A model generated the notes under the pieces. The model saw only the letters and a program-made list of their open reading frames with translations, ran no database searches and had not been told where the DNA came from. A stretch of DNA of 64,000 bases from Chloroflexota bacterium. Lineage in GTDB: Bacteria; Chloroflexota; Dormibacteria; CF-121. The stretch is taken from the NCBI GenBank assembly GCA_034666565.1, contig JAXDLN010000119.1, forward strand, positions 204,162 to 268,161. Direction: 5' to 3'. Position 1 is the stretch's first letter. Each line of letters starts with the position of its first letter. The translations under genes and the position numbers were made by a program. Shown piece by piece: positions 799 to 55,540 of this stretch.

Positions 799-825
799 CG
801 GCTCATTATGGCGAAACCAGGCGCC

Positions 826-866
826 GCTACCCTACCCTCCCCCAGAGGGGGAGGGGGAGATTAGCT
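826..866 (-). repeat. copy A of a ~40-nt C-tract/G-tract hairpin/G4 repeat (CCCTCCCCC-AGA-GGGGGAGGG core), overlapping the tsaC 3' end
   Basis: Near-identical to the copies at 21966-22005 and 54266-54305. In tsaC frame it reads ...ISPSPSGGG-stop. Confidence 0.7.
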
Positions 867-1440
867 CGGACGCCGGAATCGCGCCCTGACGCAGGATCCG
901 CGGTGTCGCGCCGCTCAGGTCGAGGATGGTCGAGGGCTGACCGATGCGACAGGGTCCCCCGTCGAGCACGACATCGACGCGGTCGCCCAGGCCGGCGACG
1001 ACCTGGTCGGCATCGACCGGCGGCGGCGCACCCGCCAGGTTGGCACTACTGCTCGCGATCGGCTCATCAAGCGAGGTCAGCAGCGCGAGCGCAACCTGGT
1101 GGTTCGGGGCGCGCACGGCAATCGTTGCTCCGTCCGTTGGGATGCGGGCCGGCAGGACGAGCGTCAGTGGGCCCGGCCAGAAGCGCGCCATCAGCGCGGC
1201 GGCCGGGGCAGACACGACGGCGAAGGGTTCGACCTGGGCCTTATCGAGGACCAGCAATACCATGGGCTGCGCGGACGGGCGGTGCTTTACCTCGTAGAGG
1301 CGAGCGACGGCGACCGGGTCCGCGGCGCGCGCCGCGACCGCGTACAGCGTGTCGGTTGGGAAGGCGATCACGGCACCGGCGCGCAGCTGCTCGGCGGCCT
1401 GGGCGATGTGCGATGGATCCGCCGGCCACCGCACTGTCAC
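832..1440 (-). CDS. tsaC: L-threonylcarbamoyladenylate synthase (YrdC/TsaC family)
   Basis: AFPTDTLYAV motif matches YrdC (YPTEAVFGVG). Start set at the GTG at 1440 that overlaps the prmC stop (GTGA), giving ~202 aa. The track ORF carries an implausible 39-aa N-terminal extension. Confidence 0.8.
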   Translation of the reverse strand: MTVRWPADPSHIAQAAEQLRAGAVIAFPTDTLYAVAARAADPVAVARLYEVKHRPSAQPMVLLVLDKAQVEPFAVVSAPAAALMARFWPGPLTLVLPARIPTDGATIAVRAPNHQVALALLTSLDEPIASSSANLAGAPPPVDADQVVAGLGDRVDVVLDGGPCRIGQPSTILDLSGATPRILRQGAIPASELISPSPSGGG

Positions 1441-2300
1441 GTCTGGATGCGCACCACCCGGTTGAGTCCGGCCAGATCTTTGTGCACACTGATGTCGGCC
1501 GCGGGCCAGTGGCCCTGGGCGAGGCGCATGATGCGGCGCGTTTGCGCCGGGTCGCACTCGAACAGCAGCAGCCCGCCGGGTTTCACCGCTGCCGGGGCTT
1601 GCGCCAGCGCGGTGCGAATCAGGTCCAGCCCATCCGTGCCGCCGTCGAGGGCGAGCGCCGGCTCATACTCGAGTTCCTTCGGCCGGATCCGTCGAAGCGC
1701 CTCGGGAATGTAGGGCAGGTTGGCGAGGATCGCGTCGGCGGGGGCAGCCCCGCGCAGCAAGTTGGCCTTGACGGTCGTGATCCGCCGCCGGAGCCGGTAG
1801 TGAGCAATATTCTCGTCCGCCACTCGCAGCGCGCGGCGACTGACGTCGCGGGCCTCGATGCGAACCTGCGGGACGGCCTTGGCCACCGAGATGGCCACCG
1901 CCCCGCTGCCGGTGCCGAGGTCGATGACCCGGCGCGCGTTGGGATGCGTCTTGAACCAATCGATCGCCAGCTCGACCAGGAGCTCACTCGACGGCCGTGG
2001 AATCAACACCGCCGGGGTCACCAAGAACATGTGGCCGAAGAATTCGCGCTCTCCGACCAGGTAGGGCACCGGAACCCGGGCGGCTCGACGGCTGGTCAAC
2101 CGGCGCAGCCGTGCGCGCTGCGCGACCGTCAACTGCCGGTCGGGGTGACTGTGGAGCCGCTCGCGCGAACTCTTGAGGATGTGCGCCACCAGGATCTCGG
2201 CATCGAGCCATGGTAATGGGATCCCTGCCGTCGTAAGGGTCGCCCGTGTCTTCGCGAGCTGCGCCTTGACCCGGCCGGCGTTAGTTGCGGGCGGCGCCAT
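1437..2300 (-). CDS. prmC: release factor glutamine N5-methyltransferase (HemK/PrmC)
   Basis: VIDLGTGSGAVAIS SAM motif and NLPYIP (NPPY-type) motif. Lies downstream of prfA as in the classic prfA-hemK operon. Confidence 0.85.
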   Translation of the reverse strand: MAPPATNAGRVKAQLAKTRATLTTAGIPLPWLDAEILVAHILKSSRERLHSHPDRQLTVAQRARLRRLTSRRAARVPVPYLVGEREFFGHMFLVTPAVLIPRPSSELLVELAIDWFKTHPNARRVIDLGTGSGAVAISVAKAVPQVRIEARDVSRRALRVADENIAHYRLRRRITTVKANLLRGAAPADAILANLPYIPEALRRIRPKELEYEPALALDGGTDGLDLIRTALAQAPAAVKPGGLLLFECDPAQTRRIMRLAQGHWPAADISVHKDLAGLNRVVRIQT

Positions 2301-19182: not shown

Positions 19183-19254
19183 AGCCGCCTCGGGGATTCG
19201 AACCCCGGACCGATGGTTTACGAAACCATTGCTCTACCGCTGAGCTAAGGCGGC
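19183..19254 (-). tRNA. tRNA-Thr (anticodon CGU)
   Basis: Hand-folded cloverleaf: GCCGCCU-UA-GCUC-AGCGGU-AGAGC-A-AUGGU-UUCGUAA-ACCAU-CGGUC-CGGGG-UUCGAAU-CCCCG-AGGCGGC-U. CCA not encoded. Confidence 0.85.
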
Positions 19255-19273: not shown

Positions 19274-21910
19274 TTACGGTTCCGAGCCGTCCGACGAACC
19301 CGCGGCGACGACGGCAGGCTCCCGCGCACCCGCTTTGCGCAGGATCAGTGCACCGTCCACGGCATCGACCAGGACGGTGTCGCCCTCGCGGAACTTGCCG
19401 TCGAGCACCGCCATGGCGAGTGGGTCCTGTATACGGCGCTGGATGACTCGCTTGAGGGGGCGGGCGCCGAAGGTCGGGTCGTAGCCTTCGTTGGCGATGA
19501 CCTCGATGGCGGCGGGCGTTAACTGCAACGTGATCCGCCGATCGCCGAGGCGTTTGCGCAGCCGCTCGAGCTGGATATCGACGATGTGCTTGATCTGGTC
19601 CCTCGTCAGCGGCTTGAAGATGATGATCTCGTCGACGCGGTTGAGGAACTCGGGCCGGAAGTTGTGCCGCACCGCTTCGAGGACCGCCTTCTGCTTGTCA
19701 TCGTCGCTCAGGCTCGGATCCTGCAGGATGTGGCTGCCGAGGTTCGACGTCATGATGATGACGGTATTCCGGAAGTCGACGGTGCGGCCCTGGCCGTCGG
19801 TCAGGCGCCCGTCCTCGAGGATCTGCAGCAGGATGTTGAACACATCCGGGTGCGCCTTCTCGATTTCGTCGAACAGGATGACGCTGTAGGGTCGGCGGCG
19901 GACCGCCTCGGTGAGCTGACCGCCCTCTTCGTAGCCGACGTAGCCAGGGGGCGCGCCGACGAGCCGCGCGACGGTGTGCTTCTCCATGTATTCGGACATG
20001 TCGATGCGGACCATCGCCTGCTCGTTGTCGAACAGGAATTCAGCAAGGGCGCGGGCCAGCTCGGTCTTCCCCACGCCGGTCGGTCCGAGGAAGATGAACG
20101 ACCCGATCGGTCGATTGGGATCGCTCAGTCCGGCACGGCCGCGGCGAACCGCGTTGGCGACCGCCGTGACGGCCTCATCCTGGCCGACCACGCGCGCATG
20201 CAGCCGCTCCTCCATCTTGATCAGCTTCTGGACTTCGCCTTCGAGCATCTTCTGCACCGGGATGCCGGTCCAGCGGGACACGATCTTGGCGATGTCCTCT
20301 TCGTCGACCTCTTCCTTGAGAAGGCGATGCTCCTTCTGAAGGGCGACGAGCTCGGTGTTCTTCGCCTCGAGGTCCTTTACGACCTTGGGCACCTCGCCGT
20401 ACTTCAGGCGAGCGGCCGCTTCGAAATCCGCCATTCGCTCGGCGCGCTCGGCGTCGAGGCGCAACTGCTCGAGTCGCGCCTTGAGCTCCCGGATCGATTG
20501 GATGAGCGCCTTCTCCTGCTGCCACTGCGACCGCATGACTTTGCTCTGTTCCTGCAGGTTGGCGAGCTCCTTCTCGATCGCGGTGAGCCGATCCTTCGAG
20601 GCACGGTCCTGCTCTTTCTTGAGCGCCTGCCGCTCGATCTCGAGCTGTCGAATCTGGCGCTCGATCTCGTCGAGCTCCTGGGGCAGGCTGTCGATCTCCA
20701 TGCGCAGGCTGGAGGCGGCCTCGTCGATCAGGTCGATCGCCTTATCCGGCAGGAAACGGTCGGTGATGTAGCGGTGTGAGAGCACCGCGGCGGACACGAT
20801 GGCGGAGTCCGTGATCCGCACGCCGTGATGGACCTCGTACTTTTCCTTGAGACCGCGAAGGATTGAGATGGTGTCTTCGACCGATGGCTCGCCGACGAAG
20901 ATCGGCTGGAAGCGCCGTTCGAGCGCCGCATCCTTTTCGATGTACTTTCGATACTCGTCGAGCGTCGTGGCGCCGACGCAACGGAGCTGGCCACGAGCCA
21001 ACGCCGGCTTCAGCAGGTTGGAGGCGTCCATCGCACCCTCGGCGGCCCCGGCACCCACGAGCGTGTGGAGCTCGTCGATGAAGAGGATGACCTTGCCGTT
21101 CGATGACTCGATCTCTTTCAGGACGGCCTTCAGCCGGTCTTCGAATTCGCCGCGGTACTTGGTACCGGCAATCAGCGAACCGAGGTCGAGCGAGTGGACG
21201 CGCTTGTCTTTGAGCGACTCGGGCACATCACCCTGCGCGATCCGCTGGGCAAGTCCCTCGACGATGGCCGTCTTGCCAACGCCGGCCTCGCCGATCAACA
21301 CCGGGTTGTTCTTGGTACGGCGCGAGAGGACCTGGATGACGCGACGGATCTCCTGCTCGCGGCCGATGACCGGATCGAGCTTGCCTTCGCGGGCGAGCGC
21401 GGTCAGGTCGCGGGTGTACTTTTCGAGCACCTGGAACTTGGATTCGGGCGATGCATCGGTGACCCTGGTCGAGCCGCGCACCTTGGTGAGCGCTTCGAGC
21501 ACCTTCTCGCGGGTGACGCCGGCCCGTTGCAAAATCTTGGCGCCCTCGCTGTTCGTCTCATCGATGATCGCGAGCAGCAGATGCTCGGTGGAGAGGTACT
21601 CATCCTTGAGCCGCTCCATTTCGTTCGAGGCCGAATCCAACAGGCGGCGGAGCCGGGAACCCAGGTAGGTCTCGGCGCCGTAGACCTTAGGTAGTCGGTC
21701 GAGCTGGGCTTTCAGCTCGCCTTCGACTCGCGATGGTTCCACGCCGATCTGCTGCAGGATGGGGCGAACCGTGCCGTCCTGCTGCTGCAGCAAGGCGTAC
21801 AAGAGGTGCTCGGGCGTGATCTCCTGGTGCTGGGCTTCCTGCGCAAGCGACTGCGCTTGCTGGATTGCCTCCTGGGTCTTTTCGGTTAATCGGTCAGGGC
21901 GAAACGGCAT
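19274..21910 (-). CDS. clpB: ATP-dependent chaperone ClpB
   Basis: 878 aa with two AAA+ modules and a middle coiled-coil domain, N-terminal Clp_N. Confidence 0.95.
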
Positions 21911-21965: not shown

Positions 21966-22005
21966 CCGCCCCCACCCCGCCCTCCCCCAGAGGGGGAGGG
22001 GAAAA
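21966..22005 (-). repeat. copy B of the C-tract/G-tract hairpin/G4 repeat, in the dnaK-clpB spacer
   Basis: ccccaccccgccctcccccagagggggagggg. Minus-strand sense: CCCCUCCCCC-UCU-GGGGGAGGG-CGGGGUGGGGGC. Confidence 0.7.
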
Positions 22006-22013
22006 AATCCTGG

Positions 22014-23918
<1,905 letters not shown>

Positions 23919-24040
23919 CTCGTAGTACTCCTTAAAGGATATGGGGCCCCGGCGCACTCGCGCCCCGGGCAAGCTGGGCGGTATATACCCTCGCCAATTC
24001 GGCGCTAAACGATACGAACCCTAGAATAGTTTCAGGTTAT

Positions 24041-28558: not shown

Positions 28559-29304
28559 TCGCGACCTATACCCGCAGGGAGTTGATGGTGGTGGCGGCCG
28601 CCCGCGAGATCCGTGACGGCGAGGTCGTGTTCGTTGGGATGCGCCTCCCGCTTCTCGGCTTCGGCCTGGCTAAGGCCACCCACGCTCCGACCGCGGTCGG
28701 CCTCTTCGAGAACGGCGTCATCCGCGATCGGCCCGCCGAGGCCTTCATCTACACCATGGGCGATCCGCCCAATATCGTCGGGGCGATCGCCTGCCTTGGA
28801 CTCATCGACGTGATGAGCCTGCTGCAGCAGGGGCGAGTCGACGTCGGCTTCATCGGCGGCGCGGAACTCGACCCGCACGGCAACCTCAACACCACCCGAA
28901 CGAGCGGCAGCGGCTCGCTGGTCCGCCTGCCGGGGAGCGGCGGGGGCGGCGATATCGCCTCGCTCGCGGGACGAACCGTCTTGATCATGGAGCACGAGCC
29001 GCGCCGTTTTCGCGAGCGCGTCGACTACATCACATCCCCTGGGCATTTCCCCGGGCGGCGCCGCGGTGGTCCTGCCACCCTGATCACGACGCTTGGCGTT
29101 TTCGATCTTTCGAGCGGGCAGGTCCGAGCGGTCAGCTTGCATCCTGGCGTTACCCCGGCGCAGGTGCGTGACGCGACCGGCTTCACGATTGCGATCGACG
29201 ACGCGGTTGCGGCCACAACCCCGCCTTCCACGGATGAGCTCGCTTACATCCGGCGCGCCGATCCGGAGGGCTTTTGGACCGGGGACAGGACGAAAGGCGA
29301 GTGA
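28555..29304 (+). CDS. CoA-transferase subunit B (GctB-like)
   Basis: MIATYTRRELMVVAAAREIRDGEVVFVGMRLP and LPGSGGGGDIA match GctB. ATGA overlap with subunit A. Confidence 0.85.
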   Translation: MIATYTRRELMVVAAAREIRDGEVVFVGMRLPLLGFGLAKATHAPTAVGLFENGVIRDRPAEAFIYTMGDPPNIVGAIACLGLIDVMSLLQQGRVDVGFIGGAELDPHGNLNTTRTSGSGSLVRLPGSGGGGDIASLAGRTVLIMEHEPRRFRERVDYITSPGHFPGRRRGGPATLITTLGVFDLSSGQVRAVSLHPGVTPAQVRDATGFTIAIDDAVAATTPPSTDELAYIRRADPEGFWTGDRTKGE

Positions 29305-31271
29305 CAGTGGCGGCTCCGGTTTGGTCTCCGACGGAACAGCAGGCACGCCAGAGCCGGCTGTGGCGCTTCATGCACGAGCTCGGCTGCACCAGCTACCCGG
29401 AGCTCTGTCAGAAGGCCGCGCAGAACCCAGGCTGGTTCTGGGATGCGCTGGTCAAGGATCTCGGCATCGTGTGGTCGACGCCCTATGGCGAGGTCATGGA
29501 CACATCACCAGGCATTCCCCTGACCCGGTGGTTCCCCGGCGGACGGTTGAACGCCTATGAGTCGGCGGTGGTCCGCTACCGCCGGTTGGATCCAGACCGC
29601 CTCGCCATCATCGGCGAGACCGAGGCGGGGACCTCAAGGCAGCTGACCTATGCGCAACTCGATGAGACAGTGGAACGGGTCGCAAGCGGGCTGCGCGAGA
29701 TCGGCGTCGAGCGCGGGGTTGCGGTCGGGCTCTACCTGCCGCTCGTCATCGAGAATGCCGTCGCGCTGTTGGCCTGTACCAAGCTAGGGGCGGTCGCGGT
29801 GCCGCTCTTCTCGGGCTTCGGCGCGGAGGCCATCCGTCAGCGGTTGTCCGATGCGCAGGCACGTGTGCTGATCACGGCGGACGCCGCCGTGCGGCGCGGC
29901 CGGCCGGTCTTGATGAAGCCGATCGCCGTGGAAGCCGCCGCCGGACTGCCAGACCTGGACCGGCTCGTCGTGGTGCGGTGCGCGGGTGTCGACACGGCGA
30001 AGGACGGTGGCCGCGAGGTCGCGTGGGAGGATCTGGACCTGCCGCGTCCTCCGGTGGCCACGGAAGCAATGCGGCCGGATGAACCGTTGTTGCTCCTCTA
30101 CACCTCGGGCACGACCGGCCGCCCCAAGGGGACGGTGCATGGACACGCGGGTCTCCCGATCAAGGCCGCGCAGGATTGGGCGCTCGGGATGGACGTCCGG
30201 CCGGGTGAGCGCGTGATGTGGGTGACCGACATGGGCTGGGTGATGGGGCCGTTGCTCGTGTACGGCAGCCTGATGCTGGGCGGCACCGCGGTCTTCTACG
30301 ACGGCGCTCCCGATTATCCAGAGCCACGGCGTGTGTGGGACGTGGCGGACCATCAGGGCGTCACGCACCTCGGCATCTCCCCCACCCTCACCCGAGTCTT
30401 GATGGCATCGGGCGATCGGGCCGCCCCGCAGCGACCCGTCTCCCGGCTGCGCGTGCTGGCGTCGACCGGCGAGCCCTGGACCCCCGAAGCGTGGACCTGG
30501 CTGTTCGAGACGGTCGGCCGCGAGCAGGTCCCGATCATGAATTACTCCGGTGGGACCGAGTGCGGAGGCGGCCTGCTGTCGGGAAACTTCCTCACCCCCT
30601 CGAAGCCGGGCAGTTTCGCGGGCCCGATCCCCGGCATCGATGCCGCCGTTTTCAACGACCGCGGTCAGCCGGTCACGGGCGAGGTGGGCGAGCTGGTCAT
30701 CCGCCAGCCGTACCTGGGGATGACGCTCGGATTCTGGAAAGACCCGCAGCGCTACCTCGAGACCTACTGGTCGCGCTGGCCCGACATCTGGGTGCACGGC
30801 GATTGGGCGATGGTCGACAAGGATGGGCTCTGGTACATCCTCGGGCGATCCGACGACACCATCAAGGTCGCGGGCAAACGGGTGGGACCGGCCGAGGTCG
30901 AAGCCGCGGCCCTCGATGGCACGGCCGCGGCGGAGGCGGCCGCCGTCGGAGTCCCCGACCCGATCAAGGGTCAATCGGTGGTGGTCTTCACCGTCGCTCG
31001 GCCCGGCGCGGATCCCGCCGCGATCCCGGGGGCGGTGTCTCGCAGCATCGAACGGTTACTGGGCAAGCCCTTCAAGCCGGCGGCGGTGCACGTCATCCCG
31101 CGCCTGCCCAAGACGCGCAACGGCAAGATCCTGCGGCGCGTGATCCGCAACGTCTTCCTCGGCGACCCGCCCGGCGATCTGTCATCGATCGACGACCTCG
31201 CCTCACTCGAACCGATCCGCCAGCTCGGCAGTTCTCCCTCCGCCTCTGGCGACGGGCAGGGTGGGGGCTAG
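29301..31271 (+). CDS. AMP-forming acyl-CoA synthetase (acetyl/propionyl/acetoacetyl-CoA synthetase family)
   Basis: Acs-type N-domain and YTSGTTGRPKG AMP motif. GTGA overlap start at 29301 (alternative ATG at 29274). Confidence 0.8.
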   Translation: MTVAAPVWSPTEQQARQSRLWRFMHELGCTSYPELCQKAAQNPGWFWDALVKDLGIVWSTPYGEVMDTSPGIPLTRWFPGGRLNAYESAVVRYRRLDPDRLAIIGETEAGTSRQLTYAQLDETVERVASGLREIGVERGVAVGLYLPLVIENAVALLACTKLGAVAVPLFSGFGAEAIRQRLSDAQARVLITADAAVRRGRPVLMKPIAVEAAAGLPDLDRLVVVRCAGVDTAKDGGREVAWEDLDLPRPPVATEAMRPDEPLLLLYTSGTTGRPKGTVHGHAGLPIKAAQDWALGMDVRPGERVMWVTDMGWVMGPLLVYGSLMLGGTAVFYDGAPDYPEPRRVWDVADHQGVTHLGISPTLTRVLMASGDRAAPQRPVSRLRVLASTGEPWTPEAWTWLFETVGREQVPIMNYSGGTECGGGLLSGNFLTPSKPGSFAGPIPGIDAAVFNDRGQPVTGEVGELVIRQPYLGMTLGFWKDPQRYLETYWSRWPDIWVHGDWAMVDKDGLWYILGRSDDTIKVAGKRVGPAEVEAAALDGTAAAEAAAVGVPDPIKGQSVVVFTVARPGADPAAIPGAVSRSIERLLGKPFKPAAVHVIPRLPKTRNGKILRRVIRNVFLGDPPGDLSSIDDLASLEPIRQLGSSPSASGDGQGGG

Positions 31272-52615: not shown

Positions 52616-53418
52616 TTCCGCCCTCGCATCTGCACCGCCGGCGCGCCCGGGTTCTCGAGGTTGATGTACTGGATCTGCGCGGAGGTGAAATCGATCCGGC
52701 TGCTGAGCGCCCGCAGGGCCGCCAACTTCGGCTCCAGGGTGGCGCGGTCGTCGCTGGTGACCATCTGGCCGAAGATGATGGTCCATCCGCGGTCGGTTTG
52801 CGCACTCAGCACCTGGCGGCGGTCGAGCTGAAAGGACATCAGCGAGATTTTGAACGCCGGAGCAAAGCCGGCCTTCAACTGCAGCAGCATGGGCAGCAGG
52901 TCGCGGTCGACCGCATGCTGGCCGAAGGCTACCGGGCCGAAGTCGGGCCGGTTGATCACCGTCAGTCCGCCGGCCTCCGCGGCCGGGTCGAGGACCTGAC
53001 CGAGATCATTCATGGCGTAGGTCGCCTCCCCCACCTGAAGGACGGCCGATGGCTTCCACTCGGTGATCCTTGCCGTGACCCGGTCGGGCAGGGCCAGGCT
53101 GACAGTCGCCGACCGGACCCAGGGCATCGCCATCAGGCGCTGCTCGAGCTCGCCGTGGTTGAGAAAGAAGATGTTGCGGTCTGCCGGGAGCGCAAGCGCC
53201 GTAGTGATTTGCGCCGGCGTGAGATGGGTCGTGCCGATTACCTCGACCTGCCGCGGCCGGAAGGCCGGCTGTGCCAGGAGGAAAAGCGCGGCGAAGACTT
53301 CGGCACCGAGGATCGCGATCTGTGCCACCGCCCAGATCCAGCCACGCGAGGATGCGCGAGACTTGGCCGGCGCCGGGGCGGTTCGCCGCCGTCGCTTGGA
53401 GATGGTGCCGACCGTCAT
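52612..53418 (-). CDS. ftsQ: cell division protein FtsQ/DivIB
   Basis: N-terminal TM, POTRA domain and FtsQ beta domain. Located between ddl and ftsA. Confidence 0.8.
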   Translation of the reverse strand: MTVGTISKRRRRTAPAPAKSRASSRGWIWAVAQIAILGAEVFAALFLLAQPAFRPRQVEVIGTTHLTPAQITTALALPADRNIFFLNHGELEQRLMAMPWVRSATVSLALPDRVTARITEWKPSAVLQVGEATYAMNDLGQVLDPAAEAGGLTVINRPDFGPVAFGQHAVDRDLLPMLLQLKAGFAPAFKISLMSFQLDRRQVLSAQTDRGWTIIFGQMVTSDDRATLEPKLAALRALSSRIDFTSAQIQYINLENPGAPAVQMRGRK

Positions 53419-54563
53419 TCGGCGGCCTCGGGCGGAAGCAGGCGGCTGTCGATCGCCGTCTGCGAGCGCTGCCGGTCGTTGAATCGCTCGATGGCGAGTT
53501 CGACCAGGCGCTCGATCAGCGTTGGGTAGGGCAGACCCGAGGCTTCCCAGAGCTTGGGATACATGCTGATGCGCGTAAACCCCGGGATAGTGTTGAGCTC
53601 GTTGAGGAGGAGCCGGCCGGAGGCGCGCTCCATGAAGAAGTCCACCCGGGCCATGCCGGCGGCGTCCACCGCCTGGAAGGCGCGCACCGCCATGCCCTGA
53701 GCCTCTTGCGCGACGGCGTCGTCGACCGGGGCCGGGATCAGCAGCCGAGAGCCCTCGTCGAGATATTTCGCGTCGTAGTCATAGAACTCGTGCGCCGGCA
53801 CCACCTCGCCCACGACCGAGGCCTCGGGCTCGTCATTGCCGAGGACGCTGATCTCGAGTTCGCGGGCATCGACGGCGCGTTCCACCAGCAGCTTGCGATC
53901 AAACGTACTGGCGAGGCGAAGCCCCTCGACCAGCTCGTCGCGGTTGTGGGCCTTGGTGGTGCCGACGCTGGAGCCGGAGTTCGCGAACTTCGTGAAGCAC
54001 GGGTATCCGATCCGCTCTTCGACCAGGGCGACAAACGCATCGGGGTCGCGCTCGTACTGGCGGCGCGTCGTCGGCAGGTAGTCGACCACCGGCAGACCTG
54101 CGGCGGCAAACGCGCGCTTCATGTAGATCTTGTCGAGGCCGAGCGCCGACCCAAGCACCCCGGCGCCGACGTAGGGAAGGTTGGCCAGCTCGAGCACCCC
54201 CTGGATGGTGCCGTCCTCACCGTTGAGGCCGTGAAAGACGGGGAAGACGACATCAAGTGGGAGAAGGCCCCCACCCTGCCCTCCCCCGGGGGGCGAGGGA
54301 GATTCCCGACCGTCCTGGGCCGGAACAAGTGAGTGTTGGGTTGGGTCCGGGGGCAGATAGACGTAGGTGCGGGCCGCGGCGTTGCTCACGAGCCGCTGAA
54401 GGGAATCACCGGTTAGCCAGCGACCCTCCTTGTCGATGTAGAGTGGCACCGCCTCGAAGCGTTGTGGATCCATGGCGGCGATGATCGACTGGGCTGAAAG
54501 GATGGAGACCTCGTGCTCGGTCGACCGCCCGCCGAATAGGACCCCGACCCGCAGCCGCTTCAC
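53415..54563 (-). CDS. ddl: D-alanine--D-alanine ligase (carries an in-frame repeat-derived ~12-aa insertion)
   Basis: MKRLRVGVLFGGRSTEHEVS, DVVFPVFHGLNGEDGTIQG and ATP-grasp motifs. The SPSPPGGGQGGG insert is encoded by repeat copy C. Confidence 0.92.
   Translation of the reverse strand: MKRLRVGVLFGGRSTEHEVSILSAQSIIAAMDPQRFEAVPLYIDKEGRWLTGDSLQRLVSNAAARTYVYLPPDPTQHSLVPAQDGRESPSPPGGGQGGGLLPLDVVFPVFHGLNGEDGTIQGVLELANLPYVGAGVLGSALGLDKIYMKRAFAAAGLPVVDYLPTTRRQYERDPDAFVALVEERIGYPCFTKFANSGSSVGTTKAHNRDELVEGLRLASTFDRKLLVERAVDARELEISVLGNDEPEASVVGEVVPAHEFYDYDAKYLDEGSRLLIPAPVDDAVAQEAQGMAVRAFQAVDAAGMARVDFFMERASGRLLLNELNTIPGFTRISMYPKLWEASGLPYPTLIERLVELAIERFNDRQRSQTAIDSRLLPPEAAE
54266..54305 (-). repeat. 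copy C of the C-tract/G-tract hairpin/G4 repeat, in-frame inside ddl
   Basis: ggcccccaccctgccctcccccggggggcgagggagatt. Minus-sense: AAUCUCCCUCGCCCCCCGGGGGAGGGCAGGGUGGGGGCC. Confidence 0.7.
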
Positions 54564-55540
54564 GCTTGCTTAGCCCGGCCGATGACGCGGATCTCCGGTT
54601 CCAGCTCGATGCCGAACCGTTCTTGGACGCGATCCCGCATCTCGGCCATTAAGGCTAGCACGTCATCGGCGGACGCCCCGCCCAGGTTGACGATGAAATT
54701 TGCGTGTTTCGGTGAGACCTGGGCGCCGCCGATTCGCAGGCCTTTGAGGCCGCACACATCGATCAGGCGGCCGGCGGAATCGCCCGGTGGGTTCTTGAAA
54801 GTGCTGCCCAGGCTTCGCTGCTCGATTGGCTGAGTCGCGCGACGATGCTTCTGCACCTCCAGGAGACGCGCGCGCACCGTCGCCGGCGGCTCGCTGGTTG
54901 TCGCGAAGGTCGCCGACGTGATCACCCATCGATCGCGCGAGCGTTTGAAGGCCGAATCGCGATAGGCGAAGCCGCACTCGGCCGCCGTCATGAGCTGGCG
55001 CTTGCCCTCTGGGTCGACGACCTCTGCGCGCTGGAGGCGATCCTTGACCTCGCCGCCAAACGCACCCGCGTTGCCGAACACCGAACCGCCAACGGTGCCC
55101 GGGACACCCGCGGCAAACTCCAGCCCGCCTCGGCCTGCCTTGGCCATCTCCGATGCGAGCTTCGGCATCAGGGCCCCCGCGGAAACCGACACGCCATCCT
55201 CGTCGACGGAAATTCGAGCGGTGCTCAGCTTGATCGTGAGCCCCGGCAGTTCGTCGCTGGCGAACAGCGTGTTGGTGGCGGCCCCGATGACGAGGTACGG
55301 GACCTGGTCGCGATGCAGCCGTCCGACCAGGTCTGGCAACACCGCATCGTCGGCGACCTCGAGGAAATATCGGGCGCGGCCGCCGATGCCATACCAGCTA
55401 TGCGGCTGCAGCGGCTCATGCTCCCGGACGCCGGGATAGGAAGCAAGCCACGCGTCAGGCAACCGGCGAGCGCTCCAGCACCTCAGCCGTCTTGCCGACG
55501 GCATCGTCGAAGCCGCGCACCGACATGAAAACGATGACAT
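54560..55540 (-). CDS. murB: UDP-N-acetylenolpyruvoylglucosamine reductase
   Basis: FAD-binding region WYGIGGRARYF...VPYLVIGAATNTLF. The start may be downstream of 55540, because the track ORF overlaps murC by 86 nt. Confidence 0.85.
   Translation of the reverse strand: MSSFSCRCAASTMPSARRLRCWSARRLPDAWLASYPGVREHEPLQPHSWYGIGGRARYFLEVADDAVLPDLVGRLHRDQVPYLVIGAATNTLFASDELPGLTIKLSTARISVDEDGVSVSAGALMPKLASEMAKAGRGGLEFAAGVPGTVGGSVFGNAGAFGGEVKDRLQRAEVVDPEGKRQLMTAAECGFAYRDSAFKRSRDRWVITSATFATTSEPPATVRARLLEVQKHRRATQPIEQRSLGSTFKNPPGDSAGRLIDVCGLKGLRIGGAQVSPKHANFIVNLGGASADDVLALMAEMRDRVQERFGIELEPEIRVIGRAKQA

Follow-up and report, generated by a model that had tools for sequence, protein, structure and literature searches.

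The ddl gene of a Dormibacterota-like soil bacterium carries within its coding sequence a 36-nt segment which, as judged from its sequence, is a copy of the G/C-rich class II intrastrand triplex motif (BoxC/PIT/TMECO-like). The initial annotation of the 64-kb stretch of DNA analysed here (the window) had placed an in-frame repeat inside an uninterrupted 382-residue ddl reading frame, and this is borne out by the ORF at 53415-54563, the copy at 54267-54302 and the four related copies matched by nhmmer across the window. In our view, a copy of the motif probably entered ddl in an ancestor of the clade, was tolerated as a loop and was later partly deleted, with the remaining copies homogenised and the peptide neutral. 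The ddl case adds an example to a type of event that is already known and does not amount to a new system.

The repeat copy in ddl and its protein context

The ddl gene (53415-54563, minus strand) is situated between murB and ftsQ in the dcw cluster and appears in the ORF list as an intact frame for a 382-residue D-alanine--D-alanine ligase of the DdlA type. Its product matches D-Ala-D-Ala ligases in the PDB (best E = 6e-96), and a database protein with 100% identity to it carries the name D-alanine-D-alanine ligase. In an alignment of 124 Ddl sequences all 26 of the 26 invariant columns are preserved in this enzyme and the catalytic residues are intact. The frame continues without interruption through the repeat as ...QDGRE-SPSPPGGGQGGG-LLPLDVVFPVFHG.

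The whole repeat copy occupies 54267-54302 on the minus strand, a length of 36 nt and hence a multiple of three, and its predicted translation is SPSPPGGGQGGG (residues 88-99). In the coding orientation it reads TCT CCCTCGCCC CCC GGGGGAGGG CA GGGTGGGGG C. The leading TCT (54300-54302) is followed by a pyrimidine block, CCCTCGCCC (54291-54299), which has one mismatch to the purine block and for which the family consensus is CCCTCCCCC. Loop 1 is CCC (54288-54290), where the A consensus has TCT and the B consensus CTTGC. The purine block, GGGGGAGGG (54279-54287), is the hairpin partner of the pyrimidine block and is separated by loop 2, CA (54277-54278), from a third, reverse-Hoogsteen-type block, GGGTGGGGG (54268-54276), which mirrors the purine block, T facing A, and is the sole part of the repeat kept in short ddl alleles. 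Compared with the A-subfamily consensus, which was recovered from metagenomes independently of the ddl copy, 33 of the 36 positions match and three differ, synonymous positions included. The perfect A consensus is found in the ddl genes of two other lineages (L247 and L248) and in 36 metagenome copies.

The repeat unit is either 36 or 39 nt long and lacks stop codons in all six frames, and its runs of C and G can be coded only as Pro/Ser and Gly. It would therefore be read through as a flexible loop before the DVVFP strand, leaving the enzyme intact; the Ser/Pro/Gly loop of about 12 residues previously assigned to this position is indeed 12 residues long. An AlphaFold2 model of the ligase has a mean pLDDT of 93.4, and its sole weak internal stretch is residues 81-100 (block means of 68 and 59). 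Mapping the insert onto a Ddl structure, as had been suggested, places it in a predicted coil at residues 82-104 of this model, at low confidence. We note that ESPSPPGGGQGGGLLPLDVVFPVFHG is a stretch of the predicted Ddl translation at the insert.

The insert site is a hypervariable segment of the N-terminal domain, and both its length and its sequence vary in all DdlA-type ligases. These enzymes (349-394 residues) all have a long, length-variable segment here, such that the earlier statement that other Ddl proteins have a much shorter linker holds for DdlB-type enzymes only. Relative to short ddl alleles, the full insert represents a net gain of 9-11 residues.

Three further copies are present in the window, each with the three blocks in the same order as in ddl. 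One, at about 824-860 on the minus strand, supplies the C-terminal tail (...ISPSPSGGG*) of an ORF of the Sua5/YciO/YrdC family (832-1557), the Pfam domain of which stops at residue 225 of 241; the TAG stop codon (832-834) consists of loop 2 together with the opening base of the third block, which is degenerate in this copy. Another (21968-22003, minus strand) is intergenic, between dnaK (22014-23972) and clpB (19274-21910), and the sense strand of both genes is the G-rich strand. The last, a decayed copy at 31233-31268 on the plus strand, likewise encodes the C-terminal residues (...SSPSASGDGQGGG*) of an ORF resembling acyl/acetyl-CoA synthetases (29274-31271), and the orthologous site in L208 has a perfect consensus. 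The two ORF tails read the repeat in the same frame. The initial annotation had the same element lying in intergenic DNA, which is true of the dnaK/clpB spacer, but the other two copies are ORF tails. Within the 64-kb window the four copies, including that in ddl, have nhmmer E values of 2e-6 to 4e-5. The 18-mer GGAGGGCAGGGTGGGGGC, allowing up to three mismatches, has four matches against 0.24 expected, and four were reached in none of 100 shuffles of the window. For all four copies the G-rich strand is the sense strand.

Relationship to triplex motifs and other short repeats

The ITxF criteria for intrastrand triplexes specify stems of 6-15 nt (at least 8 nt being meaningful) with no more than one mismatch and loops of 1-6 nt (Holder 2015, PMC4666352). 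The ddl copy has the ITxF block order, CCCTCGCCC / GGGGGAGGG / GGGTGGGGG, from 54299 to 54268 on the minus strand, with stems of 9 nt and loops of 3 and 2 nt. There is one stem mismatch in the window allele (G6 of the pyrimidine block) and none in L247 and L248. All nine of its nine triads are of the kinds allowed in the antiparallel arrangement, that is, C-G.G, T-A.T or T-A.A only.

The mirror rule was examined using a template confusion matrix over pairs of arms and third blocks. The arm GGGGGAGGG is paired with the third block GGGTGGGGG in 141 of 155 cases, GGGGGAAGG with GGATGGGGG in eight of ten, with other templates not fitting, and GGGAGAGGG with GGGTGAGGG or GGGAGAGGG in 21 of 24. In a set of 255 hairpins, the places at which the third block has A or T follow, in mirror register, those at which the purine arm has A. 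This mirror covariation specifically supports a putative hairpin-plus-third-strand (triplex) architecture. The sequence can form a G-quadruplex, as had been pointed out for ddl, but it is the triplex arrangement to which the covariation is specific. An anti-Shine-Dalgarno mimic, a Rho rut site and a pure G-quadruplex were each considered as the main logic of the repeat and were rejected, as each leaves the tracking of purine-arm A by third-block T/A unexplained.

For the E. coli sequence the triplex has been shown in vitro only, in single-stranded DNA, and DMS footprinting in vivo was negative (PMC4666352); according to the literature the triplex of this motif forms in DNA and not in RNA. In published tests, members of the family acted neither as promoters nor as terminators and showed no association with what the neighbouring genes do, and mobile elements show no link to the motif (Holder et al., 2015, PMC4666352). 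ViennaRNA folds ddl segments of 63-66 nt into predicted RNA hairpins of -29 to -40 kcal/mol, with a G-quadruplex as an alternative.

One of the closest known systems is TMECO (PMC4666352). As in the ddl repeat, a loop separates its pyrimidine block from its purine block and a second, short loop leads to a G/T mirror block, each block being 9 nt long; the C-G.G and T-A.T/A triads and the total length of about 36-39 nt are shared as well. TMECO is likewise dispersed, highly uniform and taxonomically widespread, has two loop subtypes and is associated with small local deletions. The ddl copy departs from the strict TMECO pattern, 5'-CCCTCNCCC N3-6 GGGNGAGGG N3 GGGNGAGGG-3'. Its first two blocks match, but its A-type loop 2 is 2 nt long and its third block is GGGTGGGGG, in which position 6 is G and not the A of TMECO; the mirror rule demands G when N is G. 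We have therefore filed the ddl repeat as a TMECO-like variant and not as TMECO. TMECO has been reported only from Proteobacteria, where it is 'always intergenic' in E. coli MG1655 (PMC4666352), whereas the host here is Dormibacterota-like and copies lie inside an essential-type gene and inside the 3' ends of two ORFs. The E. coli version of the motif is present in 5409 of 5426 E. coli genomes. Motifs combining PQS and C-tracts from Methanomicrobiaceae and Deinococcus show an in vitro equilibrium of hairpin, antiparallel triplex and G-quadruplex (PMC8044849). Like the ddl repeat, they set a tract of four G-runs beside a complementary C3TC3-type tract, and in Deinococcus they frequently lie where a coding region ends; the archaeal motif, unlike the ddl repeat, has its C-tract on the 3' side and has been reported from intergenic DNA only.

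The GTAG/CGTC REPs are G/C-rich palindromes of 20-40 nt which are mostly extragenic (Di Nocera 2013, PMC3733652). In size and dispersal the ddl repeat resembles them, with a 9-bp hairpin, four copies in 64 kb and a mostly intergenic distribution. Some REPs supply the stop codon of an upstream ORF (PMC3733652), as the copy in the Sua5/YciO/YrdC-family gene does here. Intragenic REPs occur in many species, some of them wholly within ORFs such as uvrA, recB and tRNA synthetases (PMC3733652). REPs lack the third mirror block that is present in the ddl repeat, and no GTAG or CGTC tag was found at either end of the copies in the window, the metagenomes or the ddl alleles, the ends being T(C/T)T-CCCTCCCCC ... 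GGGTGGGGGC. The repeat motif is absent from two REP papers (PMC3733652 and PMC12306157). MITEs have terminal inverted repeats around 50-500 bp and a target-site duplication; such duplications were absent from the four window copies and the ddl junctions, and the element is only 36-39 nt long.

The insertion in ddl had previously been likened to Rickettsia palindromic elements (RPEs), of which families RPE-1 to RPE-8 are distinguished in Rickettsiales. RPEs are selfish palindromic repeats which lie in frame in functional genes, typically at surface-exposed or permissive sites. They are about 100-150 bp in length, are A/T-richer, are known from Rickettsia and its relatives only and encode 30-50 residues. 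The comparison does not hold, since the ddl repeat, at 36-39 nt, G/C-rich and in a Dormibacterota-like genome, resembles RPEs in neither sequence nor architecture. The accompanying claim that in-frame insertions of this kind are rare outside a few lineages is contradicted by the many species with intragenic repeats in PMC3733652 and by the occurrence of the present family in GlnE, PrmC, SoxA and other proteins.

Outside the window the repeat is widespread. A pattern describing only the hairpin retrieved more than 120 metagenome loci, most of which have the tail CAGGGTGGGGGC that was absent from the search pattern; conversely, a pattern containing the tail retrieved genome loci from many phyla, again more than 120, and the CCCTCCCCC arm that the pattern lacked is present in almost every one. 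Exact hairpin matches exceeded 120 in each collection scanned, and the repeat also occurs in finished Azospirillum and Variovorax replicons. Two subfamilies, A (loop TCT, spacer CA) and B (loop CTTGC, spacer TC+G), are found together on the same contigs. About 70% of classifiable copies are intergenic according to a crude GC3-frame heuristic. The initial annotation had proposed looking for further in-frame coding copies; besides the two ORF tails in the window, in-frame copies were found in other phyla in GlnE, PrmC, a P-type ATPase, SoxA, a UvrA-like protein and others, and selected host proteins were confirmed using Pfam. A stop-to-stop ORF classification, which gave 55 'internal' candidates, was discarded as too noisy in high-GC DNA. 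Literature searches with raw repeat strings returned eukaryotic noise only. At the Rfam gathering score, tmRNA and one tRNA pass in the 64-kb window, and the repeat has only sub-threshold chance hairpin matches.

Alleles of the ddl insert

Orthologues were taken as the best 120 of 8000 proteins scored (84-100% identity), from JGI, ENA and NCBI assemblies. A full-length segment is present in 114 of the 120, nearly all being a recognisable variant of the element, and the other six have deletion remnants. Ddl homologues of 55% identity or less have no insert and carry unrelated sequence of variable length at the site. The suggested alignment of orthologues thus gives a divided answer, in that the insertion in ddl is confined to one lineage but the element itself is not lineage-private.

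Twelve ddl alleles were read as DNA, and seven insert-bearing ones were compared. In a neighbour-joining tree (Kimura distances, without support values), the B insert is found on every basal branch, and the short alleles occupy dispersed, nested positions. The 120 orthologues are shown in this way to share an insert-bearing ancestor, the polarity being that of the neighbour-joining tree. Since the nearest outgroups are at most 55% identical and no truly empty allele, with the third block also gone, was found within the clade's listed orthologues, the timing and polarity of insertion rest on this tree; 'insertion' is used here in the sense of presence and absence and not of target-site duplications or an enzyme. 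In each of the six short alleles 24-33 nt are gone in frame and the third block is kept as CGG GGT GKG GG. L251 (P0089) has lost exactly 24 nt, so that GAG GGT CGG is left from the purine block and the spacer, and L001 has a 33-nt deletion between CGG repeats. In one lineage the segment has been swapped for unrelated DNA and many other alleles are decayed, with ddl otherwise intact.

Diverged ddl lineages carry consensus copies of the two subfamilies at the same nucleotide position. L247 and L248 both match their consensus at 36 of 36 positions and are identical over the insert (36/36), compared with 63% identity at flanking third codon positions. L006 and L249 each match at 38 of 39 positions and share 37 of 39 with each other, compared with 66% at flanking third codon positions. 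The A and B alleles differ by compensating 2-nt and 1-nt indels, with the middle being read in different frames, and allele differences fall mostly in loops and spacers and less in stems. The occupation of one site by two subfamilies and the conservation of the insert far above that of flanking synonymous sites were both unexpected, and they suggest gene conversion or re-insertion.

Origin and persistence of the insert

The history that we favour begins with the arrival of a copy of the class II triplex motif in ddl, at the variable segment of the N-terminal domain, in an organism ancestral to a Dormibacterota-like clade. As the comparison of alleles shows, several lineages then lost the hairpin half when 24-33 nt lying between short direct repeats (CGG/GGT) dropped out in frame; the deletions and the replacement fit replication slippage and the local instability reported for the motif family. 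The remaining copies appear to have been held at, or reset to, the A or B consensus, the likely route being non-allelic gene conversion or template switching in which copies elsewhere in the genome serve as the source. The insert peptide is most likely a neutral passenger.

A different order of events, which we consider unlikely, is recurrent site-specific insertion, in which a mobile hairpin half of about 24-33 nt targets a pre-existing GGGTGGGGG-like tract. The short alleles would then represent sites that are empty or from which the unit was excised, and the perfect A and B copies would have arrived recently and independently at one hot spot. Such a scheme would account for the retention of exactly the third block in short alleles and for perfect copies of two subfamilies at one nucleotide position in diverged lineages, and a target-site requirement would also give nearly every hairpin a tail. 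However, the GAG GGT CGG retained in P0089/L251 marks it as a deletion product and not an empty site, the deep branches all have the insert and the short alleles are few (6/120) and nested. Moreover, where the purine arm differs between subfamilies the third block differs with it, as expected of one unit but odd for an independent target. Less probable again is that the insert was kept for a function, whether as a hairpin or G-quadruplex in the dcw mRNA, as a non-template-strand triplex tuning ddl/ftsQ expression or as a loop of the Ddl protein. Its conservation well above that of flanking synonymous sites, the concentration of changes in loops and spacers rather than stems, the strong predicted RNA hairpins with their G-quadruplex alternative and the G-rich sense strand in all four window copies would agree with such a role. 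Against this, the hairpin has been deleted independently in several lineages, replaced in one and decayed in many with ddl intact, the peptide is predicted by AlphaFold2 to be disordered and the published tests of the family were negative as described above; nor would structural selection account for a change from one exact subfamily consensus to the other.

We give almost no credence to the idea that the segment is a plain low-complexity linker with a chance likeness to the repeat, or that it stems from an assembly error. The composition is simple and G/C-rich, and chance pattern matches in 596 Gb of genomes were estimated to be non-negligible, but the agreement with consensus extends to synonymous positions (33/36 in the window, 36/36 in L247 and L248, 38/39 in L006 and L249), the count in the window far exceeds that in its shuffles and more than 100 independently assembled orthologues have the insert.

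The family has been known for about 30 years (since the 1990s) and is described as intergenic in the literature consulted; the copy in the gene of a core cell-wall enzyme shows that the motif can enter coding DNA harmlessly. The ddl alleles constitute a natural experiment on the instability attributed to the motif, comprising perfect copies of two subfamilies, others that have decayed, deletions of 24 and 33 nt and a single replacement. More tentatively, and with rather more doubt than confidence, we raise the idea that BoxC/PIT/TM motifs are actively copied or converted and are not static relics, the ddl slot having switched subfamily consensus and elsewhere collapsed by slippage deletions. 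If so, intragenic copies would offer a built-in clock and a frame constraint for measuring the mechanism of spread or homogenisation, and in-frame triplex-motif loops would have given rise repeatedly, and across phyla, to Pro/Gly linkers in proteins (GlnE, PrmC, SoxA, UvrA-like, P-type ATPase and Ddl). For annotation, repeats can be the source of Ser/Pro/Gly-rich loops and of C-terminal tails in high-GC genomes, and such stretches should not be taken as functional linkers or placed naively in alignments and phylogenies. We also observe that the ddl slot lies near consensus despite a divergence of about 35-40% at flanking synonymous sites.

The element within ddl

The D-alanine--D-alanine ligase gene ddl (53415..54563, minus strand) is a 382-residue ORF with no interruption, reading ...VPAQDGRE-SPSPPGGGQGGG-LLPLDVVFPVFHG..., and is surrounded by a dcw cluster (murC, murB, ddl, ftsQ). 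Its product is of the DdlA type, with full-length PDB matches down to E = 6e-96, and is 100% identical to a database protein named D-alanine--D-alanine ligase from a 'Chloroflexota'/Candidatus Dormibacteraeota-type MAG. The protein retains 26/26 invariant columns in an alignment of 124 Ddl sequences. The 36-nt copy of the element occupies 54267-54302 (minus strand) and reads TCT CCCTCGCCC CCC GGGGGAGGG CA GGGTGGGGG C in the coding orientation. The initial annotation described a repeat copy in frame within an uninterrupted ddl; this observation is real, and the core interpretation of the insert holds.

The insert slot is hypervariable by nature and lies between the strand ending in HSLV and the DVVFP strand. 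Units of the two subfamilies, A (36 nt) and B (39 nt), are free of stop codons (TAA, TAG, TGA) in all six frames, and their C-runs and G-runs encode Pro/Ser and Gly only. In the AlphaFold2 model of this Ddl, computed with the 124-sequence alignment (mean pLDDT 93.4, pTM 0.91), residues 81–100 form the sole weak internal stretch (block means 68 and 59), and coil extends from 82 to 104. The translated loop that had been placed just before the DVVFP strand is modelled as low-confidence coil.

The G-rich strand of the element is the sense (non-template) strand in the window genome. According to the literature, RNA does not form purine-motif triplexes. For 63–66-nt segments of the ddl mRNA, ViennaRNA predicts strong hairpins (−29 to −40 kcal/mol), with a G-quadruplex alternative that is more favourable still for A-type sequences, in line with the G4-capable motif annotated in this mRNA.

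We note that the third block of the ddl copy, GGGTGGGGG, can be paired with the codons just 3' of it (CTN CCN CCN, Leu-Pro-Pro) in a second predicted hairpin (within 54252-54276). This hairpin occurs at the same place in the fetched loci L001 and L249 and also in short alleles; it may be a coincidence of Gly codons beside Pro codons or what is left of a second, inverted element. As listed, the murB ORF (54560-55540, minus strand) encodes 326 residues in the window and in L006, compared with 299–310 in other orthologous loci (L001, L248 and L249), and MurD and MurG vary by 10–30 residues between loci. No element copy accounts for these length differences, which are therefore likely to reflect different start-codon calls.

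Identity and distribution of the element

A scan of one genome per species with the pattern GGGGGAGGG-N1-3-GGGTGGGGG gave at least 120 loci, and the matches listed include Alpha-, Beta-, Gamma- and Deltaproteobacteria, Bacteroidota, Dehalococcoidia, Anaerolineae, Planctomycetota, Nitrospirota and one Peribacteria MAG. In nearly all listed matches the arm CCCTCCCCC and a 3–7-nt loop lie directly upstream, although neither was part of the search pattern. When metagenomes were scanned with only the hairpin (CCCTCCCCCTCTGGGGGAGGG), at least 120 loci were likewise found, and most of those listed carry CAGGGTGGGGGC or C(A/T)GGGGTGGGGGC on the 3' side, again absent from the pattern. Finished Azospirillum and Variovorax replicons contain the element unannotated, and Rfam holds no family corresponding to it.

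The third block mirrors the purine arm, with T facing A. When each perfect 9-bp pyrimidine/purine hairpin among all fetched loci was examined, the arm GGGGGAGGG was followed by GGGTGGGGG in 141 of 155 cases and the arm GGGAGAGGG by GGGTGAGGG or GGGAGAGGG in 21 of 24, while GGGGGAAGG was followed by GGATGGGGG in eight of ten and by any other template in none. Antiparallel G opposite G-C and T/A opposite A-T is, at the level of sequence, the signature of a single-strand purine-motif triple helix. The literature confirms that the element belongs to a known family, which went by the name BoxC in the 1990s; Hoyne and Maher termed its members 'potential intrastrand triplex' (PIT) elements, and Holder et al. 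(2015; PMC4666352), who describe a G/C-rich class II motif with 3610 occurrences in 262 proteobacterial genomes, use TM/TMECO. The E. coli version is carried by 5409 of the 5426 complete genomes of that species, at a median of 17 places per genome. The published family forms a stable triplex in vitro as single-stranded DNA, was not detected as such in vivo, has neither promoter nor terminator activity, comprises two subtypes distinguished by loop 2 and shows an excess of small deletions at its loci (PMC4666352). TMECO is 'always intergenic' in MG1655 (PMC4666352), whereas the window element is also translated inside ddl. Nor does the window element fit the strict TMECO pattern, because its third block is GGGTGGGGG and its loop 2 is 2 nt long in the A type; judged by its sequence, it is a TMECO-like variant. 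Related hairpin/triplex/G4 repeats are reported from Methanomicrobiaceae and Deinococcus (PMC8044849).

The repeat type and in-frame insertion of palindromic repeats are already known. In our view, what is new is modest: a translated triplex-motif copy within ddl, a Dormibacterota subfamily of the motif, and a ddl allele series recording intragenic motif decay and apparent homogenisation.

Tandem or inverted clusters of elements, spaced by ~50–300 nt, occur in Variovorax and other genomes (L039 7360-7842, L222 1200-1400, L221 2500-2650, L024 7060-7350), and recall both BIME-like arrays and the pairing of type A with type B BoxC elements reported in E. coli.

History of the ddl copy

Among the best 120 of 8000 scored proteins (84–100% identity, 372–393 residues), 114 carry the full-length segment, nearly always as a recognisable element variant, and six are short (372–375 residues). 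Three main forms occur, SPSPLAGEGRGGG (B), SPSPSGGGQGGG (A) and a shorter one, SPSGGxQGGG (C), together with decayed versions. Ddl representatives of at most 55% identity (349–394 residues) have unrelated and very length-variable sequence in the slot, in agreement with a lineage-specific insert. In a neighbour-joining Ddl tree with the insert region masked, B is found on every basal branch and the short alleles are dispersed among insert-bearing relatives. At the DNA level, L247 and L248 contain the perfect A consensus TCTCCCTCCCCCTCTGGGGGAGGGCAGGGTGGGGGC, L006 and L249 contain the B consensus TCTCCCTCCCCCCTTGCGGGGGAGGGTCGGGGTGGGGGC with one terminal difference each, and L250 contains a near-consensus copy (36/39 to L249). 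L251 (P0089) is B minus exactly 24 nt, with GAG GGT CGG retained; L001 has lost 33 nt between CGG...CGG repeats, so that the third block is all that remains. From the tree and these alleles we conclude that ddl probably underwent a single ancestral insertion and, later, decay and recurrent in-frame deletions by slippage, the same kind of instability as Holder et al. (PMC4666352) report for intergenic copies. In L252 (P0099; 3001-4152) 45 unrelated nt (IGQSQRAAGSSSSSA) lie exactly in the element slot, which suggests replacement through illegitimate recombination or templated repair at an unstable site. The reverse complement of these 45 nt resembles a fragment of another coding sequence.

The subfamilies are set apart by two indels, one of 2 nt in loop 1 and one of 1 nt at loop 2, as a result of which the purine block encodes GGG in A and GEG in B; either indel without the other would frameshift ddl. 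The ddl A and B alleles are each the exact consensus of their own subfamily, and both subfamilies coexist on the same contigs. The insert is much more conserved than its surroundings: it is identical at 36/36 positions between L247 and L248, compared with 63% of flanking third codon positions (87% of all flank positions), and at 37/39 between L006 and L249, compared with 66% of flanking third codon positions. The few differences among alleles fall mostly in the loops, spacer and ends. The simplest reading of this conservation is that the insert may have been repeatedly reset by non-allelic gene conversion or template switching, for which other copies would be the source. Alternatives are repeated re-insertion at one hot spot in ddl and selection on the nucleic-acid structure of the insert.

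Copies elsewhere in the window and in other genes

With a four-copy seed, nhmmer finds exactly four copies in the window, the ddl copy and three others, at E-values between 2e-6 and 4e-5. Allowing up to three mismatches, the 18-mer GGAGGGCAGGGTGGGGGC matches four times (0.24 expected; four reached in 0/100 shuffles) and the hairpin pattern three times (0.15 expected), so that the copies exceed chance on all three measures. The initial annotation spoke of the same element in intergenic DNA. This applies to the copy at 21968-22003 (minus strand), between dnaK and clpB, but not to the other two, which are translated as C-terminal tails, in the frame used by the ddl copy. The copy at about 824-860 (minus strand) encodes the tail ...ISPSPSGGG* of a Sua5/YciO/YrdC-family ORF (832..1557), beyond a Sua5_yciO_yrdC Pfam domain whose last residue is 225 of the 241 in the protein; loop 2 and the base that opens a degenerate third block together supply the TAG stop (832-834). 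The decayed copy at 31233-31268 (plus strand) encodes the tail ...SSPSASGDGQGGG* (31233-31271) of an acyl/acetyl-CoA synthetase-like ORF (29274..31271), after its Pfam AMP-binding_C domain, and has one compensatory stem change (C7 to G, partner G to C). The orthologous site in L208 (7063), a locus with ~88.5% identity to the window over most of 11.5 kb, has the perfect consensus (SSPSPSGGGQGGG*). The three translated copies read S-P-S-P-x-G-G-G..., and in 4/4 copies the local genes have the G-rich strand as their sense strand; with n = 4 this common strand and frame could be chance. The only Rfam gathering-score matches in the window are a tmRNA gene (36856-37222, minus strand; 155 bits) and one tRNA gene (19183-19254, minus strand).

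Fetched copies were classed as coding or intergenic by a rough GC3-frame heuristic. By this measure the cross-phylum sample has about five distinct internal in-frame copies versus 91 intergenic or other, and the A-type metagenome sample (108 classifiable) has ten in frame, 20 in which the 3' end of a gene runs into the element and 78 intergenic. In hosts confirmed by Pfam the inserts lie between or within domains; these are GlnE (L029), PrmC (L119), a P-type ATPase (L042) whose DKxxxV and GDGxNDxP motifs flank two inverted copies, a molybdenum hydroxylase (L071) and SoxA with two copies or sites (L181, L239). A sensor kinase (L132) and, putatively, UvrA-like 2100-residue proteins with several copies or sites (L138, L171) are further hosts. 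The organisms include Planctomycetota, Dehalococcoidia and a Burkholderiaceae MAG, besides metagenome contigs. Intragenic REPs of other families and stop-codon-donating REPs are already catalogued (Di Nocera et al., 2013; PMC3733652). Given this catalogue and in-frame copies in several phyla, the view that such insertions are rare outside a few lineages is not upheld.

The GC3-frame heuristic also puts many metagenome copies beside gene starts. In several of them (3' flanks among L127-L246) an ATG lies 0–5 nt past ...GGGTGGGGGC, for example gggggcgtcATG and gggggctcATG; the G-rich tail might act as a ribosome-binding site or share bases with one, or the starts might be mis-called.
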